Position numbers and translations under genes: made by a program
Origin: Planctomycetota bacterium
Lineage (GTDB): Bacteria; Planctomycetota; UBA1135; UBA2386
DNA: 64,000 nucleotides
Assembly (NCBI GenBank): GCA_965228735.1
Contig: OZ245838.1
Span: 1,568,001 to 1,632,000, forward strand
Direction of reading: 5' to 3'
The notes under the pieces: model-generated
Database searches by the model: none
What the model saw: only the letters and a program-made list of their open reading frames with translations
Told to the model about the DNA's origin: nothing
Part shown: positions 10,528 to 59,922 of the stretch, in pieces
Layout of the letters: the number at the start of each line of letters is the position of its first letter
Numbering within the stretch: position 1 is the stretch's first letter

Positions 10528-10640
10528 GGCGGTACCAAACCCGTTTCGAATCCGCCACCCGCCCGCCGCCGCAAGGCGGTGGCGGGGCGCCGATCGCGCG
10601 TGGGCGTGGGTGGCGGATTTGAAACGGGTTCGGTACCGCC
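10528..10640. repeat. REP/REPIN-like inverted-repeat element, copy 1 (unoccupied)
   Basis: 33-bp arms ggcggtaccaaacccgtttcgaatccgccaccc (10528-10560) and gggtggcggatttgaaacgggttcggtaccgcc (10608-10640), 2 mismatches; intergenic; the same arms recur at 35915. Confidence 0.88.
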
Positions 10641-33153: not shown

Positions 33154-35019
33154 TCACGGCATCTGGAACGCGACCGCCGGCGACAGCGCCGGGATCGTGA
33201 ACGTGTTGAGATCGAGGATCACGTGGGCGGCGAACAACGTCGCGCCGGAGAAGACGTTGGGGGTCGGCAGATCGAGTCGCAGCGAACGATAGCCCGCCGC
33301 CGGCATCGCCTGGAACGAGCCCGGCAGACCGAGCCACAGCTGCAGGAACGGATCGAGGTTGAGCGGGATCGTCTGATTGAGGAACGGGAAACCGGGCGTC
33401 GAACCGTAGGCCACGCCGATGATGCTCCAGAGCGCCCCGCCACCGTGATCGAGTGCCGTGCCGTGCACCGTGATCCCGCCGCCATCCGTCGACACCCCGA
33501 CCTGCACCGGGTGCAGCGTCGTGTCCGTCGGATTCATCGCCCCGGGGGAGCCGCGGTCACCGATCCCGAACGGCAGCGGCGCGGCGGCACAGTTCGACGA
33601 CACCGCGCTGGCGAACAGATTGCGACGCTCGGTCGCGATCCCGCTGCCGCCCGGGAACCCGCTCGTGTAGGAGATCGAATCGAGGAAGGTCGAACCCTGC
33701 CGCAGCGTCACCGTCTCGCCGCCGTTGCCGAGCGACATCGTGTTGTACGGGACGGTCATGCCGAGCGGCTGCTGGCCGTTGCGGGCCGGGGCACCGTCAC
33801 GCTGGAACACCATCGGGCGGCCCGGCACGAGCATGAAGTTGCTCGCGATCGTGATCGTCGAGCTGTTGTCCTGGATGCGCAGCCCGGCGAGACCGACCGG
33901 TTGCGGACCGACGTTCACGACCTCGACGTATTCGCCGTTGGTGTCGGGCACGACGGACGGGTCGCGATGCAGCTCGCTGATGCGCACGTCGCCGGCGCCG
34001 AGCTGCGGCACGCTGACCTCATCGCAGTAGAAGTCGAGGAAGTCGCCGTTCTCCGCGGTCGCGCGATAGCGCCGACCGTCGGTGTCGATCCGCACGTTCC
34101 CCGTGACGCCGAACCCGATCGTGTTCGAGCTGCCGCGCGTCGTGCTGAGCATCGCCCGCGCTGCGGCGGCCTGGACGATCCGATTGGTGACGTTGATCGT
34201 CGGGTGCCCGTAGGGATTGCCCGTGCCGCAGCTCACCAGCGCGAGTTCGGGGTCGAGCCGCGTCACGAGGTTGGTGTTGGTCGAGGTGTTCGAGCCGTGG
34301 TGGTTGAGCTTGTAGACGTCGACATCGCCGCAGGCGAGCGCCGCTGCACTCTCCACGTCGACCGTGCTGTTGCCGCCACCCGTGAGGTCGCCGCCGAGCC
34401 ACATCGAGAAATCGCCGTAGTCGAGCCGCAGCACGACCGACCGCGAGTTCTCTTCCTGCGACGAGGGGATCGGGTCGATGAACGCGCCGCCGAGGACATG
34501 GCCATCGCGCGCGATGCACGTCGCGGTCGCGCCCCCGCCGAGCTGGAAGACCTGGCCGACCTGCACCGTGCGGCGCCGCGCCCCGGCCGCGTTGAGGTAG
34601 TCCGGCATCTGCGAGCTGCCGTTGTTCCGGCGCAGGTCGCCGCGGTCGTAGGCGAACACGAACGGGCGCGCGTTGAGCAGCTCGTCGAGCCCGCCCATGT
34701 GATCCGTGTGGAAATGCGACAGGAACGTGAAGCCGTAGCCGGTCGGCTGCAGCTGGTTCACGACCGGCAGCATCGACAGGATCCCCTGGTTGTTCGGGCC
34801 GCCGTCGTAGCAGTGGATCGTCCCGTCCGGCGCGCGGATCACGACGCCGTCACCCTGACCGACGTCGACGAGCACGACCGTGAGACCGGTCGGCGCGTCG
34901 GCTTCGCCGTTCTGGGCGGCGAGCTGCAGCCCGAACGAAACGATGGCGGCGACCAGGGCGAGCGCCCTGGCGAAGTTGGAAGCGAACATGGCGGCGAGGA
35001 CCATACCAGATGCGGCCAC
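33154..35019 (-). CDS. Secreted ComEC/Rec2-type MBL hydrolase with lamin-tail domain and C-terminal beta domain (probable nuclease)
   Basis: DVGQGD, SHFHTDHMGG, NHHGS, NPYGHP; lamin-tail VRISEL..P...NGEYVEVVN; start approximate. Confidence 0.88.
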   Translation of the reverse strand: MAASGMVLAAMFASNFARALALVAAIVSFGLQLAAQNGEADAPTGLTVVLVDVGQGDGVVIRAPDGTIHCYDGGPNNQGILSMLPVVNQLQPTGYGFTFLSHFHTDHMGGLDELLNARPFVFAYDRGDLRRNNGSSQMPDYLNAAGARRRTVQVGQVFQLGGGATATCIARDGHVLGGAFIDPIPSSQEENSRSVVLRLDYGDFSMWLGGDLTGGGNSTVDVESAAALACGDVDVYKLNHHGSNTSTNTNLVTRLDPELALVSCGTGNPYGHPTINVTNRIVQAAAARAMLSTTRGSSNTIGFGVTGNVRIDTDGRRYRATAENGDFLDFYCDEVSVPQLGAGDVRISELHRDPSVVPDTNGEYVEVVNVGPQPVGLAGLRIQDNSSTITIASNFMLVPGRPMVFQRDGAPARNGQQPLGMTVPYNTMSLGNGGETVTLRQGSTFLDSISYTSGFPGGSGIATERRNLFASAVSSNCAAAPLPFGIGDRGSPGAMNPTDTTLHPVQVGVSTDGGGITVHGTALDHGGGALWSIIGVAYGSTPGFPFLNQTIPLNLDPFLQLWLGLPGSFQAMPAAGYRSLRLDLPTPNVFSGATLFAAHVILDLNTFTIPALSPAVAFQMP

Positions 35020-35036
35020 GGCGCCGCGCCATCGAT

Positions 35037-35909
35037 ATGCTGCGTCGCGTGAACTGCCGCACCGGCTACCACCGCGCAGACCGAACGTCTGCGCCTTTCC
35101 GCATCATGCTGCTCGCCTTGCTGATCGTGGTGCCCGCGTGCGATGACAAGGGCCCGACGCTCGGCACGATCGACGCCGGAGCACTGCAACTGGACAGCGA
35201 CATCGCGCGCTGGGAGCGCCTCGACGAGCACGAGCCACCACGCCGCCTGCGCGACCCGCGCACGGGCGTCGTCTTCCGGCGCGTCGAACCCGGATCGTTC
35301 CCCCAACACCTGCCGCAGCTCGACATCACGCGGACGATCCGCGTGAGCCGCCCGTTCCTGCTCGCCGAGACCGAGTTCACGGCGGGCCAGTTCCGTGCGT
35401 TCGCGAGCCGGGCCATCGCCGGCCCGACCCTGCCGACCCCGAAGCAGGACGAGCTGCCGATGCCGTTGTCGTTCGACGACTCGGTCGCGCTGTGCGATGC
35501 GCTCGGCTACCGCCTGCCGACCGAAGCCGAATGGGAGCTCGCGTGCCGCGGCGGCCACGCGGACGCGACCGCGCCGTGGTCGACGCCCGCCGCCGTGCGC
35601 GAGCACGCGTGGTTCAACGCCAACGCGGGCAGCGGCCCCCAACCCGTCGCGACCCGCACGCCGAACGCGCTCGGCTTCCACGACATGCTCGGCAACGTCT
35701 GGGAATGGTGCATCGACTACTACGAGATGGCGCCGTTCGGGACCGACCCCGCGCCGGTCGATCCGCAGACCACCAACGTCATGCCGGGCCGCGCAATGCG
35801 CGGCGCCTCGTGGTTCACGCCGGGCAACCCGCAACCGACGGACCGGTCCCAGGACTTCCCGGCCACGCGCAACATCTTCTACGGCCTCCGCCCAGCCCAC
35901 GACCTCTGA
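35037..35909 (+). CDS. FGE-sulfatase (SUMF1/EgtB/PvdO) domain protein, probable lipoprotein
   Basis: RLPTEAEWELACR, PNALGFHDMLGNVWEWC, RGASW; lipobox-like VPAC; start uncertain. Confidence 0.9.
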   Translation: MLRRVNCRTGYHRADRTSAPFRIMLLALLIVVPACDDKGPTLGTIDAGALQLDSDIARWERLDEHEPPRRLRDPRTGVVFRRVEPGSFPQHLPQLDITRTIRVSRPFLLAETEFTAGQFRAFASRAIAGPTLPTPKQDELPMPLSFDDSVALCDALGYRLPTEAEWELACRGGHADATAPWSTPAAVREHAWFNANAGSGPQPVATRTPNALGFHDMLGNVWEWCIDYYEMAPFGTDPAPVDPQTTNVMPGRAMRGASWFTPGNPQPTDRSQDFPATRNIFYGLRPAHDL

Positions 35910-36012
35910 GGATTGGCGGTACCGAACCCGTTTCGAATCCGCCACGGAGCGACGAGCGCAGGTGGCGCTGCCGAACCGCGTTGGCGAACCTGGTCGATGG
36001 CGGATTCGAAAC

Positions 36013-38004
36013 GCCGGGTGGCCCTGGGGGTCTCCCCCCAGGGCTCCCACAGATCCGGACGTGCGCGGCTAACGCATCCGGCTCGTCAGCGACAAGGGCT
36101 CGCTGCGTAGACCGACCGGGTCAGCCGGGGCGGAGGAAGCGGGTATGCACGCAGCAGTTGCTCGAAGCGGGCCCACGACATGTAGGCCGCCCGCGAGCGC
36201 CGGCTCAGCCACCGATGCCAGATGCGACGGGCCTCGTACCATACGCGACGTAACGCAGCAGAGTTGCCGGTCACGCCGAAGTAGAGGTAGTGCCCCCGTA
36301 GCTTCGAGCACAGGGTGGAGTACTGGACGCGGACCTTGTCGTGCCGATTGCGACGGCACCAATCCCGTAGCCCAGTCAGGGTACGGGTCACGACGTGTCG
36401 TGTGGTGCGCCGCTGCACGGTCCATCGGCCGCGCCGGGAGCGTGACCAGTGATGGGTGAAGCCCAGGAAGTCGAAAGTGCCGCTCCCCGCCGCGCCGTCT
36501 TCGGGCGGTTGGAAGCGGACTAACCGGGTCTTGTCCGGATGCAGTGTGAGGCCGAAGCGCCCGAGCCTTTGGGCCAGGATCGACGACATCGCACGTGCAT
36601 CGGCTTCGACGGCAAACAGGATCACGAAGTCGTCCGCATAGCGGACCAACTCCGCGCGACCGGCAAGCCTCGGCTTGACTTCCTCGACAAACCAACGGTC
36701 CAGCACTGCGTGCAAATAGATGTTCGCCAGCAGCGGCGAAATCACGCCTCCTTGTGGGGTGCCTTTGCGAGAGCGATGCAGCGCACCGTCCTCCTGCACC
36801 CCCGCCTTCAGCCACTTGTCGATCAGTCGACGGAACACTCCGTCGCGCACCCGCTGGTCGAGGATCGCTCGCAGATGGGTCGGCTCCAGGTTGTCGAAGA
36901 AACCTTGGATGTCGACTTCCAATAGCCAGCCGCCACCCATCGACATCGCATGCTTCCAAAGCGATTCCAGTGCCGTGTGCGGCGAGCGACCGGGACGGAA
37001 GCCGTGCGAGCAGTCCAAGAAGTCCTGCTCATATACCGCCTCCATCACTTGCGTCACCGCCCGCTGCAAGACCTTGTCCTCCAGCGTCGGCACTCCGATT
37101 GGACGCGTGCCACCCTTCCCTTTCGGGATGTGCACGCGCCGGACCGGTGGTGCGCGATAGCGCCCTGACTTCGCGCGTTCGTGCAGGTCCGCGAGGTTGC
37201 CCTCGAGATCCTGCTCGTAGTCGCGAGCCGTGACGCCGTCGACACCAGGAGCTTTGGACTTCTGCGTGCGGCGATACGCCTCCCGCAGAAGCGCGATGTC
37301 CATGTGGTGTGCCAGTGTGGTCAGGACCAGGTCTGGTCGCTGCCTCGCCAGCTCCGCTACCCGCCGGAGTTTCGTGGAGACCTGCTCGGAGCCCGTCGTC
37401 TCCGTGGTCGGTCCGTCCAGCGGTTCCTTGTCGCCGGTGACGCCCTTCCCTCCGCCGGGTCCCCGTGGGGCGGGTTCCCCGGACTCTTTGGTACTATGAC
37501 GCACTCCGACTCCCTCGTTGGCGTCCCGCGTCGCTTCGTTTCCTTCGCTCGGCGGTACCGGCCGTGTGTCCGGATTCCTTGACGGCACCGACGCGGACAC
37601 GACGTCGCGGCCCTGGAGAGTTGGTTTCCGGGCCCCAGCCGGAGTTGACGATCGGACCAATCGAGGGGATCCCAGGTTCCTGGGGAGTCCGATGGATGCG
37701 TGCGGTCGTTCTCAGGACCCCGGAGAGACTTCCGGGCCAAGCCGGTTGCGGCCCTTCCATGTTGCCTTCCGATGAACCCACCACGTCGGCTCTCTCGCTG
37801 TCGGTACTTTCGGGGCTCAGTCGCGCCGCCCACATCCTCGCTGTCTACGCTTCGCAGCGGCGGTTACCCGGTCGCCACGCAAGACTCGCTTCCGGCTGGT
37901 GGCTAGCCTTCGCCGGGCGGGTTTCGTCACCCGCGGGACTCCAATACGGGGTTCTCATTCCTGTCAGGTCATGATTTCTCCCGTCCAGGCTTCGCCTGGC
38001 GCAA
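36013..38004 (-). mobile_element. Group II intron (IIB-type ribozyme, En-minus RT), 1992 nt
   Basis: 5' end TTGCGCC. Domain I motifs GCGAAGCGTAGACAG, GAGCCCCGAAA, GCCGAC..CGGAAGGCAAC, CAGGAACCTGGGA. Domain V GAGCCGGATGCG..GCACGTCCGGATC. Domain VI CCCTGGGG..CCCCAGGGCCACCCGGC. Removing it restores the repeat arm. Confidence 0.93.
36086..37420 (-). CDS. ltrA: Group II intron reverse transcriptase/maturase, no HNH endonuclease domain
   Basis: APGVDG, VRRVHIPK, RPIGVPTLEDKVLQ, SHGFRPGRS, DIQGFFDNL, GTPQGGVISPLLANIYLH, RYADD, FDFLGF and X domain LRGHYLYFG. The frame is open to 37660 and the start is ambiguous (CTG at 37420 chosen). Confidence 0.95.
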   Translation of the reverse strand: MDGPTTETTGSEQVSTKLRRVAELARQRPDLVLTTLAHHMDIALLREAYRRTQKSKAPGVDGVTARDYEQDLEGNLADLHERAKSGRYRAPPVRRVHIPKGKGGTRPIGVPTLEDKVLQRAVTQVMEAVYEQDFLDCSHGFRPGRSPHTALESLWKHAMSMGGGWLLEVDIQGFFDNLEPTHLRAILDQRVRDGVFRRLIDKWLKAGVQEDGALHRSRKGTPQGGVISPLLANIYLHAVLDRWFVEEVKPRLAGRAELVRYADDFVILFAVEADARAMSSILAQRLGRFGLTLHPDKTRLVRFQPPEDGAAGSGTFDFLGFTHHWSRSRRGRWTVQRRTTRHVVTRTLTGLRDWCRRNRHDKVRVQYSTLCSKLRGHYLYFGVTGNSAALRRVWYEARRIWHRWLSRRSRAAYMSWARFEQLLRAYPLPPPRLTRSVYAASPCR

Positions 38005-38024
38005 AGGTTCGGTACCGCCAACCT

Positions 38025-39143
38025 CTATCGGAGAAGTCGCTCGCGTTGCAGGTACTCGTGGATCACCCGGGCCTGGATCGCGTGGCCGACGTCGTTGGCG
38101 TGCTGATCGCTCGGATGAGCCCAGAGGTCCTGCTCGTCGCCGTCGTAGGCGAGGAACGCGGGCAGCAGGTCGAGCGTGCGAATGTCGTTGTCCGCACAGA
38201 ACGACGTCACCAGCTCGTGCACCGGCCGCAACGGGTAGAGCTCCGGCTCGAGCTGCGACAGCATGGGGAAGACGCAGACGACGAGCGGGACGCCGCGCGG
38301 CCGCAGCGCGTCGCGCAGCGCGAGCAGGCCCTCGCGCGTGCCGCGCCACATCGGACTGTCCTCCTCGATGCGGCTGCGGAAGTCGGTCATGCGCTGCCGC
38401 GCGCGATACTGCCGAACGAGCTGCACCGTGTGATCGAGCGCCAGCGAGACGCCGCCGAGCACCGGCTCGAGCGGGACCGCGCGATACGTCAGCATGCCGA
38501 TCCGGACATCGATGTCGTTGAGGCACAGCCCCACGAGCACGAGATCGGGTTCGAAGTGGATGCCGTTGTCCCGCACCCAGACGTGGTAGCTCGACGGGTC
38601 ACTGCCGGCCGTCGCGAAGCCGGCGTTGATCACCTCCACCGGTCGCGCGAGCTCTTCCCGCAGCCGGGCCTCGAGGACCTGCGGCCAGCTCAGGTCGAGC
38701 CGCACGCCCATGCCATAGGTCATCGAATCGCCGAGCGCGAGGACGCGGTACTCGTTCGGCGCCTTCTGCACGTCGAACTCGAGATCGCGCAGGCCGAGAC
38801 TGTTGGTGTCGATACGCACGCAGCCGTGCTCGTCGAAGTAGTCCCAACGCGGCGCCGGGCGATACCCCCACCGCAGCTTGAGGTTGGCGAGCAGCAGGCC
38901 GTAGGGCGGCTCGGTGAAGCCGTTGTCCGCCGAGAAGTCGCTCGTCGCCATCTTCCCGGAGTAGGCGATCACCTCACCGAGCGGCACCTCGAGCCCGGCG
39001 TCGGTGAAGTAGATCGGATGCGGGGCGACCGGCCGGCCCCGGATCCGGAGCCCGGCTTCGATGAGCAGCACCGGCGCGATGATCCCGAACGCGATCAGAC
39101 CGAGTTTCTTGCCGAACCCGATCCTGCCGCGACGTCGAACCAC
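38025..39143 (-). CDS. Membrane-anchored SGNH/GDSL hydrolase
   Basis: TM helix LLIEAGLR, TNSLGLRD, VLALGDSMTYG, EVINAG, CLND and DQHAN; start approximate. Confidence 0.9.
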   Translation of the reverse strand: MVRRRGRIGFGKKLGLIAFGIIAPVLLIEAGLRIRGRPVAPHPIYFTDAGLEVPLGEVIAYSGKMATSDFSADNGFTEPPYGLLLANLKLRWGYRPAPRWDYFDEHGCVRIDTNSLGLRDLEFDVQKAPNEYRVLALGDSMTYGMGVRLDLSWPQVLEARLREELARPVEVINAGFATAGSDPSSYHVWVRDNGIHFEPDLVLVGLCLNDIDVRIGMLTYRAVPLEPVLGGVSLALDHTVQLVRQYRARQRMTDFRSRIEEDSPMWRGTREGLLALRDALRPRGVPLVVCVFPMLSQLEPELYPLRPVHELVTSFCADNDIRTLDLLPAFLAYDGDEQDLWAHPSDQHANDVGHAIQARVIHEYLQRERLLR

Positions 39144-39225
39144 GAAGGCATCGTGCGCCCGTTCGGTCGCTGCCGCAACCCTGCCGCCGGTCGCGCCGAC
39201 CGGCGCGCCATGGCATAGTCGCGCC

Positions 39226-40473
39226 ATGCCGGCTCACGACCGCCCCGCCGTCCGCCCACTCGACGTGCAGCGCATCGAACACAGCGACGGCCCCGGCATC
39301 GTGCTCGTCGATCGCCTCGGCATCAGCGAACCGTCGTTCATCCCCGAGGACCTGCTCCCGATCGTCGGCCGCTGCACCGGCGAGTGGACGCTCGGCGAGA
39401 TCCGTGAACAGGCCGCACCGCAGTACGGCGGCGAACTCCCCGCCGAGTTCGTGCAACAGGTCGTCGATCAGCTCGAGGATCGCGCGCTCCTGCTCGGCGG
39501 TCGCTTCGAGACCGCGATCGCCGAGCGCGCCGCGCAGTTCATCGCCGAACCCCGCCGGGCGGCCAGCCATGCCGGCTCCGCGGGCTACCCGGCCGACGCG
39601 GCGGCGCTGCGCGCGGCACTGCGCCGGCTCGTGTCGACCGACTGCCTCGCGACCGGGGCGGCGGCCCCCGTGCGCGGCCTCGTGGCGCCGCACATCGATC
39701 TCGCCCGCGGCGAGCGCGGCTACGCCGCGGCCTACGGCCATCTGCTGACCGCGGAACCCGCCGACCTCTACGTGATCTTCGGCACGGGTCATGCCGGACC
39801 GAGCGCTCCCGTGACCGGCCTGTCGCTCGACTGGCAGACGCCGCTGGGCATCGCGGCGACGGACCGCGCGTTCGTCGAGCACGTCCACCGGGCGATCGGC
39901 CCGCCGCGCCCCGGCGACCTGCTGATCCACCGCGCAGAACACAGCATCGAGTTCCAGGTCTTGCTGCTGCAGCACGTGCACGAAGCGCTCGGCATCGCTC
40001 CGCCGCGCGTCGCGGGCTTCCTCTGCGGCGCGCTGCCGTCCGCTACGGGTGACCCGCTCACCGAGGACTACTGCCGTGACATCGTGCAGAGCTTCCGCGC
40101 GGCCGAGGCCGGGTTCGCCGGCACCGTGCGCTACATCGCGGGCGCCGATCTCGCGCACATCGGACCGTTCTTCGGCGATCCGGCCCCCGTGGACGACGCG
40201 CGGCTCGCGCAGCTCGAGACGACGGAACGCGCCCGCCTCGCGCAACTGACGAACGGCAGTCCCGGCCCGTTCCACGCGTCGGTCGACGGCAACGGCAACC
40301 CCGATCGCGTGTGCTCCGCGCCCGCGATCACGCTCACCGCCGAACTCGCGGGCGGCGTTGGCGAGCTGCTGCACTACGGCCAGGCGCGCGCGGCCGACGA
40401 TTCGCAGACGGTGTCGTTCTGCGCGATGACGTTCGCGGGCCCGTCACCCGAGCCCGACACGACGCGGCCCTGA
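39226..40473 (+). CDS. amrB: AmmeMemoRadiSam system protein B (MEMO1 family)
   Basis: HAGSAGYP, VAPHID, IFGTGH, QTPLG, EHSIEFQ and ADLAHIGPFFGD. Confidence 0.9.
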   Translation: MPAHDRPAVRPLDVQRIEHSDGPGIVLVDRLGISEPSFIPEDLLPIVGRCTGEWTLGEIREQAAPQYGGELPAEFVQQVVDQLEDRALLLGGRFETAIAERAAQFIAEPRRAASHAGSAGYPADAAALRAALRRLVSTDCLATGAAAPVRGLVAPHIDLARGERGYAAAYGHLLTAEPADLYVIFGTGHAGPSAPVTGLSLDWQTPLGIAATDRAFVEHVHRAIGPPRPGDLLIHRAEHSIEFQVLLLQHVHEALGIAPPRVAGFLCGALPSATGDPLTEDYCRDIVQSFRAAEAGFAGTVRYIAGADLAHIGPFFGDPAPVDDARLAQLETTERARLAQLTNGSPGPFHASVDGNGNPDRVCSAPAITLTAELAGGVGELLHYGQARAADDSQTVSFCAMTFAGPSPEPDTTRP

Positions 40474-56616: not shown

Positions 56617-56724
56617 ACCCGGCGCTGACCTACTTTCGCACAGAGCACTATCATCGGCCCTGGCTGCTTGACTGCCGTGTTCGGAATGGGAACGGGTATT
56701 TCCAGCCAGGTATGGGCACCGGGA
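56617..56724 (-). rRNA. rrf: 5S rRNA (short, ~108 nt)
   Basis: TCCCGGTGCCCATACC...CCCGTTCCCATTCCGAACACGGCAGTCAAG...CCGATGATAGTGC...AGTAGGTCAGCGCCGGG. Confidence 0.95.
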
Positions 56725-56869
56725 GACGCATTGAGACCGCGATGGGGATCGCGGCGCTGTCCGTCAGGGTGCACGGCTGCTGCCGGCACGCGCTCACGAA
56801 CGAGCGCAACTCGCGCTCAGGAAGAGAGACCGCTGGGGGTCTTCGAGTCCACTTGAAGTGGAATAAATG

Positions 56870-59792
<2,923 letters not shown>

Positions 59793-59837
59793 TGATTCTC
59801 ACTCGAGATCCTCAACGATCTCTCTTCCTGAACCCGA

Positions 59838-59851
59838 GTTGTCAAAGAACG
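59838..59851 (-). promoter_or_regulatory. boxA-like antitermination site in the ITS
   Basis: CGTTCTTTGACAAC upstream of the 23S gene. Confidence 0.6.
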
Positions 59852-59922
59852 AAGCGCCGCGCGGATACCGCGGGCGCTGTGCGTTTGCAGTCTCTTCTCC
59901 GAGCCGCTCGGCATGGCCGAAT

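Follow-up and report, generated by a model that had tools for sequence, protein, structure and literature searches.

The closest described counterpart of the system reported here is RmInt2, a class D group II intron of Sinorhizobium meliloti that homes into the inverted repeats of ISRm17 (PMC4615759). As described in the accessible parts of that source, RmInt2 shares with our intron the lack of an endonuclease domain (En-minus), pairing with the target through EBS1 and EBS2, and a bias for the lagging-strand template, and its inverted-repeat target likewise always gives one site on the usable strand. The intron described here differs, however, in belonging to class E and in targeting a non-coding 113-bp doublet, not an autonomous insertion sequence. 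IBS2 is perfect at each of its ten sites, while RmInt2 can insert with -11 unpaired, and no erosion of the target is described for RmInt2 in the same parts of the report. Class E (IIE) introns, in the available portions of PMC3753933, PMC3552965 and PMC8919778, also encode an RT/maturase without an endonuclease domain; our intron departs from them in its UUGCG...GGC ends, its lack of a Watson-Crick EBS3, its lost canonical start codon and its repeat-specific target. Class C introns at terminators and attC sites, and class E fragments in attC arrays, similarly exploit a renewable, structured intergenic signal (PMC8919778, PMC7923331, both available in part), whereas the present intron reads sequence by long EBS1 plus EBS2 pairing and inserts inside an arm, not behind a hairpin.

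Intergenic palindromic repeats are also the targets of ISPpu9, ISPpu10, ISPa11 and ISPsy8, 100% of whose copies lie within them (PMC1525189, available in part). These elements are, however, DNA transposons and not RNA-guided retroelements, and of the nine group II introns of P. putida in the same material just two were at REPs. The repeat itself, here termed family A, resembles REPINs with their RAYTs (PMC3116915) and TIRs with their TIRYTs (PMC3733652; subclass 2.1.2, PMC6006769). As far as the accessible text of these papers goes, both are extragenic inverted doublets with fixed spacing and a hairpin fold, are enriched between convergent genes and lineage-restricted, and have related arms flanking Y1 genes. 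Family A differs from them in its GTAC tag, in spacers that are almost unrelated in sequence and fixed in length, and in that the resident transposase is flanked by a sister family, B.

In a literature search limited to openly accessible papers, none was found on EBS-guided homing into REP, REPIN or TIR families, the nearest being the P. putida introns at REPs (PMC1525189, in its accessible part). A search of the same scope returned no paper in which the target of an intron erodes on one strand only. Supplements, and a review of 2007 on specialised lineages of introns, could bear on novelty. The sequence-only reading that preceded this analysis knew of no description of such a pairing. The idea nevertheless has precedents in RmInt2, which homes into IS inverted repeats, and in insertion sequences that target REPs.

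The window, the whole 64,000-nt stretch of DNA analysed, belongs to a 7.19-Mb single-contig genome (G000) of a Planctomycetota bacterium, where it occupies G000:C1:1568001-1632000, and contains both an empty and an intron-bearing family A element (Table 1). The intron begins with TTGCG and ends with CACCCGGC. An rRNA operon with two tRNAs lies elsewhere in the window (56617-61842, minus strand).

Table 1. Positions of the intron, its target element and neighbouring genes, in window coordinates unless a genome coordinate is given.
Feature	Position	Strand	Remarks
Family A element carrying the intron	35915..38019		113 + 1992 nt
Left arm, empty	35915..35944	+	perfect IBS1/IBS2; lagging-sense orientation, rarely used by the intron
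Spacer, 53 nt	35945..35997		identical to spacer of element at G000:C1:6838626
3' exon	35998..36012	-	inner half of invaded arm; +1 = G
Class E group II intron	36013..38004	-	1992 nt, 38004 to 36013; UUGCG...GGC ends
Domain VI	36013..36050	-	bulged A at -7 (36019); from fold and sequence
Domain V	36051..36084	-	AGC triad
Intron-encoded RT/maturase	36086..37408	-	YADD at 36640-36629; no endonuclease domain
EBS1 GGGUUC (DNA GGGTTC)	37774..37779	-	Id3 loop
EBS2 GUACCG (DNA GTACCG)	37802..37807	-	3' of GAAA motif
IBS1 GAACCT	38005..38010	-	consensus GAACCC; one G-T wobble with EBS1
IBS2 CGGTAC	38012..38017	-	-12 = 38016, -11 = 38015, both eroded in empty leading-sense arms
Empty family A element	10528..10640		perfect target on minus-strand arm, still open
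FGE-sulfatase-domain gene	35010..35909	+	convergent on element
GDSL-lipase-like gene	38025..39227	-	ends 5 nt before arm
Y1 transposase gene, C-terminal HTH	G000:C1:6715991-6717019		flanked by family B arms; family A half-arm adjacent

The sequence-only reading had already located the intron, both EBS and both IBS segments and, at 10528-10640, a second element; all of these coordinates and sequences proved correct. An Rfam scan of the intron region gave no match to Intron_gpII at the gathering score, and domains I-IV matched group-II-D1D4-6 (RF02005) with 123.5 bits, with EBS1 and EBS2 both inside the match. A fold based on the alignment set EBS1 within the Id3 loop, and the minimum free energy fold of the whole domain, though uninformative (z = -1.05), retained the Id3 hairpin. 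The Rfam match and the alignment-based fold agree with the assignment of GGGTTC to the Id3 loop and of GTACCG to the EBS2 position. The ends UUGCG...GC depart from the IIB consensus GUGYG...AY. Across 32 introns, however, the first and penultimate bases covaried (U/G 13, G/A 18, G/G 1), which indicates that the UUGCG...GGC ends are a variant common to the clade. A Watson-Crick EBS3-IBS3 pair was not found: the candidate EBS3, whose position is inferred, is an A that faces G+1. At the same inferred position in 22 introns, the pair was Watson-Crick in five and G-T in two.

The intron protein scored 344.7 bits against the TIGR04416 cut-off of 300, and a Pfam scan of it returned RVT_1 alone, with no endonuclease domain. 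In a quick tree it formed one clade (SH-aLRT 99) with introns to which the Miura table (supplement of PMC8919778, available in part) gives the label E; this tree had 18 rows with a single D and a single F reference, both on long branches, and a g1 reference without usable ORF. Identity was 50-52% to E, 38% to D and 29% to F. A larger quick tree of 44 rows was poorly resolved and placed no sister for the window intron. The earlier description of an En-minus intron of IIB type is supported, the intron being IIB-like and of class E. At the canonical RT start (37420-37400, minus strand) all ten copies have GGACG...ACC in place of the usual ribosome site and ATG, whereas 20 of 22 parsed rows retain an ATG. 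Candidate starts are ACG at 37405, GTG at 37504 and ATG at 37303. Possibly the RT is self-attenuated through a weak start codon; with the canonical start lost, the present activity of the intron is uncertain. A second, unrelated group II intron is present in a single copy at about 7171750-7173750 of the genome (G000:C1), outside family A, with 38-43% identity to the window RT.

Family A consists of 113-bp inverted-repeat doublets, of which 133 arms were found in the genome (at most 5 mismatches, introns removed), against 0 matches for each of 3 shuffled arms, so that the repeat is multicopy, as had been supposed. The arms formed 61 pairings, 53 of them exactly 113 bp, and 12 were lone. By our own crude gene caller, 55 of 56 elements were intergenic (less than 30% gene overlap), and 33 of 56 lay between convergent genes, compared with 219 of 2026 gaps overall. 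The target 13-mer CGGTAC-N-GAACCY occurred 88 times in the 7.19 Mb: in 82 full arms, in 5 truncated arms and once elsewhere. The hairpin formed by the empty element in the window is highly stable (z = -9.7). Spacers are fixed at 53 nt and nearly unrelated in sequence (median 23/53 alike); a weak symmetric GCAAC...GTTGC core can be seen in them. Outside this genome, the family A 29-mer was found in 0 of 60 relatives, and a 20-mer at 2 mismatches in 5 of 90 genomes of the family, with several copies in G080 only, which leaves family A without an intron-free control of its own kind.

The repeat had been called REP/REPIN-like. Its inverted doublets, fixed spacing, hairpin, extragenic position and copy number agree with that name, but the canonical REP tetranucleotide, 5' GT[AG]G, is replaced by GTAC. 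Family A is better filed as the TIR doublet of a TIRYT-type tyrosine transposase, REPIN-like but with a GTAC tag and not GTAG. Known TIR families flank their Y1 transposase genes in the same way (PMC3733652, PMC6006769, in their accessible parts). Related GTAC arms were found in 12 of 90 genomes of the family, and flanked a Y1 homologue on both sides at 3 of 14 loci, on one side at 1 and on neither at 10. Judged from sequence, the arrangement typical of TIRs, arms inverted around a predicted Y1 gene with a C-terminal HTH, is seen for the GTAC superfamily and for family B, and not for family A. Two candidate TIR-flanked transposase loci were ruled out, as their contents are cargo genes. GTAC-type inverted arms surround an exported-protein gene in one (G013:C1:3738399-3740311) and what we take to be a MATE-like transporter in the other (G095:C2:174808-176435); both loci resemble non-autonomous composite elements.

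In G000 itself the locus at G000:C1:6715678-6717075 carries a single TIRYT-like Y1 gene with flanking family B arms. This gene falls below the NF047646 cut-off and is the only Y1 gene in the genome; its flanks are family B with one family A half-arm beside them, and family A appears to have no transposase of its own. Family B comprises about 245 arms, which lie next to or within some A arms and once replace the whole interior (6118580-6118677). It has one IBS2 mismatch, and no copy contains an intron.

All ten genomic copies of the intron share one junction in family A, as the flanks of every copy had been expected to show. Eight copies are intact with 0-1 SNP and two are broken by multicopy insertion sequences (G000:C1:339710-344444 and 6550593-6553893), presumably IS3-like and IS256-like; no old intron remnants were found in the genome. 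Occupied arms were perfect in 10/10 cases, compared with 72/123 empty arms (p = 0.006). By the same crude gene caller, 9 of 10 introns were co-oriented behind a gene and no gene was interrupted. The position at -7 was taken as unpaired between IBS1 and IBS2; a further pairing between intron RNA and DNA is reported (PMC8643678) and may involve this base, and one occupied site has G there.

Another strain bore on the 5' boundary. The strain of run X4 shows four differences in the flanks and, judged by depth, has about four copies of the intron. According to its joint and piece tables, a contig at single-copy depth stops matching at 38005 and passes into an empty element of unchanged length, so that the 5' boundary is confirmed. 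In the same tables the window site is empty with a different spacer, while the window's spacer is single-copy on another contig, without intron. In the window strain this spacer is present twice, whereas all other spacer pairs are at most 38/53 alike. An assembly artefact was ruled out, as the spacer unitig had double depth in run X5 (10.1 vs 5.15). These data suggest that one element was rewritten from another through intron homology, probably by gene conversion or co-transfer of the intron together with its 3' spacer. For splicing and retrohoming, the near-identity of the copies and the empty allele in run X4 are indirect signs.

Homologous introns at 50-65% identity were used to examine the guides, after ten loci with doubtful or missing ends, deletions or duplication had been dropped (two were re-used for 5' ends). 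Among 38 introns with a 5' end call and flanks, 9 did not parse and the remaining 29 include near-identical copies. In these, the Id3 loop paired with the 5' exon of the same intron over 6 nt or more in 19/29 introns vs 41/798 swapped pairs, and the EBS2 segment did so in 11/29 vs 46/798. EBS1 and EBS2 thus covary with the exons. Together with the common junction of the ten copies, this supports the view that EBS pairing directs homing into an abundant family of intergenic palindromes, and we regard homing into family A as practically certain.

Whether close homologues also reside at repeats, as the sequence-only reading anticipated, received a mixed answer. A repeat, inverted or direct, of at least 10 nt within 60 nt was present at 13/27 homologous sites vs 30/318 flank windows, a contrast that is overstated as the controls were mostly coding. 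Among nine sites chosen for their repetitive look, four contained a multicopy host repeat (L018, 31 matches; L008, 66; L035, 76; L045, 45), and a matching own EBS1 parsed at three of these. The other five (L023, L009, L027, L026 and L006) showed no multicopy repeat, in fragmented genomes and, for L026 and L027, with patterns borrowed from other sites. Other homologous introns seem to sit within genes or in unique DNA. In this clade, introns have been retargeted onto repeats more than once, but this is not the rule. Several sites had individual features. At L045 the hairpins occur in pairs with about 1.1 kb between them and could be the ends of an IS. Tandem homologous introns in G067:C4 (L117) are separated by one 11-mer unit of a host repeat, and genome G064 has a second intron in three copies (L114, L118, L120) whose flanks form related palindromes. 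A class E homologue in G068:C41 (L010) lies inside what we take to be an attC-like site.

The ten copies were placed relative to replication, with the origin at about 4.57 Mb (dnaA, skew minimum) and the terminus at about 1.25 Mb. Nine of ten introns were co-oriented with the leading strand (p = 0.011), though just 24 of 82 perfect arms point that way. Introns read with the leading strand entered the lagging-strand template, a route known for RmInt1 (PMC4075523) and RmInt2 (PMC4615759), both sources being available in part. Mutation of the arms showed the complementary pattern. Position -12 or -11 was mutated in 37/67 leading-sense arms vs 5/66 lagging-sense arms (p = 1.8e-9), and the bias flipped with the replichore (21/39 vs 3/35; 16/28 vs 2/31). 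Within empty 113-bp pairs, the leading arm was broken and the lagging arm intact 28 times, and the reverse was found once. Transcription was ruled out as the cause, as the bias was independent of gene direction: between convergent genes, 14 elements were changed in the leading arm only, 0 in the lagging arm only, 4 in both and 14 in neither. Double mutants at -12/-11 were absent, with 5.1 expected (p = 0.0008), and elements with the same variant did not share spacers (p = 0.38). These results indicate recurrent changes, and the spacer comparison rules out inherited subfamilies as the source of the erosion. Avoidance of a restriction site was also rejected, as GGTACC shows no under-representation (1.28) and the bias affects one side only.

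Leading-sense occupancy was confined to perfect arms (9/24, vs 0/43 mismatched arms, p = 3e-5). The 67 arms on the usable strand comprise 9 that are occupied, 43 that are mismatched and 15 that are open; the corresponding numbers for the other strand are 1, 8 and 57. These proportions suggest a cost of insertion and depletion of targets, and they tell against the original proposal of a renewable, harmless landing pad, under which the arm variants would be unrelated drift. That proposal accords with the intergenic position of 55/56 elements, with the absence of interrupted genes, with the co-orientation of 9/10 introns behind a gene and with the 15 leading-sense arms that remain open. However, an asymmetry of 37/67 vs 5/66 that flips with the replichore is beyond drift, and the intron also appears to have caused the replacement of a spacer between two elements. 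We consider it very improbable.

The asymmetry was concentrated on the guide-paired bases. Non-IBS positions were symmetric (28 vs 30 mismatches, leading vs lagging), and the other IBS positions had a weak leading excess (12 vs 4, p = 0.051). Two families served as controls, both of which may be younger than family A: family B, with 68 doublets and no leading excess (33 vs 51 mismatches), and the related arms of G013, a genome without group II RT, in which the equivalent G was retained in 85/85 arms (39 leading, 37 lagging, 9 unsure). In the G013 count, 9 of 94 matches were dropped as non-members, all also with G, and variants with more than 3 mismatches would be missed. A search of the genome for a third large palindromic family as control yielded none.

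A cause independent of the intron might lie in replication itself, with a mutational hotspot at the fork-proximal foot of the hairpin, or with GG needed only in the fork-distal arm, and with the intron using leftover arms. The very stable hairpin would suit such a hotspot, and the arms of a pair agree at +2 in 41/53 cases vs 26.5 expected, which suggests arm-to-arm correction; tolerance of a single mismatch would likewise yield no double mutants. Against this, the 68 family B doublets have no fork-proximal excess, the bias is seen at IBS2 with non-IBS positions unaffected, and 8-mers over -12/-11 that start with GG, TG or GC are non-polar outside the repeat (0.53-0.58). For these 8-mers a Chi- or KOPS-like polar motif is also unsupported. 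Both forms of this explanation seem distinctly doubtful to us.

The spectrum of changes bears on a further candidate. At -12, 13 of 17 changes were G to C, the family B base, and at -11 the changes were A 8, C 6 and T 6. Homing may be real and the erosion the work of a TIRYT that nicks or recombines the sense arm on the lagging template, the GTAC-tag changes being escapes from it or its products. Enzymes of this kind act on the lagging template and rely on a tetranucleotide at the 5' side (PMC6006769, PMC8266576, in their accessible parts), the Y1 gene of this genome has family B arms around it and a family A half-arm beside it, family B adjoins or sits inside truncated A arms at several sites, and G to C at -12 yields family B sequence. 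But the cognate family B is without asymmetry, G013 retains its G in all 85 arms while having TIR-flanked homologues, the -11 changes fit no B sequence, and the six half-arms divide into 2 leading and 4 lagging. We therefore judge this account unlikely. Two of its elements nevertheless count against escape from the intron: exchange with family B could be the source of the G to C changes at -12, and a Y1 transposase, also working on the lagging template, is resident in the genome.

The reading that we prefer, with a probability of roughly 0.6, is that the intron homes to a fixed junction by EBS1 and EBS2 on the lagging-strand template, and that costly insertion has driven the exposed arms to single IBS2 escape mutations. 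Under this reading the intron would be transcribed by read-through, with the GDSL-lipase-like gene the likely source; no promoter-like site was found in 35800-39400. By analogy with RmInt1 (PMC4075523) and RmInt2 (PMC4615759), in the accessible parts of both reports, splicing would be aided by the maturase, the intron would reverse splice into single-stranded DNA at the fork, and the nascent lagging strand would prime the reverse transcription step. Of each doublet, one arm would always lie on the strand open to the intron. There, perfect arms would be invaded, the invaded alleles purged or mismatched alleles favoured, and mismatches would collect at the two IBS2 bases most dispensable for the repeat.

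Some known properties of these introns temper the escape reading. RmInt2 inserts naturally with -11 unpaired (PMC4615759, available in part), so a single mismatch in IBS2 does not necessarily prevent homing. IIE introns can splice in vitro without EBS2 (accessible part of PMC3753933). Moreover, as the ten copies are nearly identical, tens of escape mutations require a longer history than the present copies record.

In the wider interpretation, to which we give slightly better than even odds, the intron and the repeat would be engaged in an arms race, in which exactly one arm of each palindrome acquires single IBS2 escape mutations and its mirror image is left unchanged, and in which class E introns time and again retarget their guides to whichever repeat is present in the host. 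Erosion of one arm per palindrome would follow from an intron able to strike the lagging-strand template only. The cost of introns at intergenic 'safe' sites has so far been argued mostly from occupancy counts (selection-driven extinction, PMC3522654, in its available part). Mirror-image arms supply a built-in control for selection on the target site, which makes cost and escape directly testable, and the comparison of leading with lagging arms at guide-paired bases is applicable to any repeat targeted by an intron or an RNA-guided IS. The pattern also suggests a role for EBS2 in class E homing in vivo, a point left open in the accessible part of PMC3753933. If the arms-race reading is true, each element carries its own internal control, and the pattern suggests that protection of such repeats pays off, either for the host or for the propagation of the repeats themselves.
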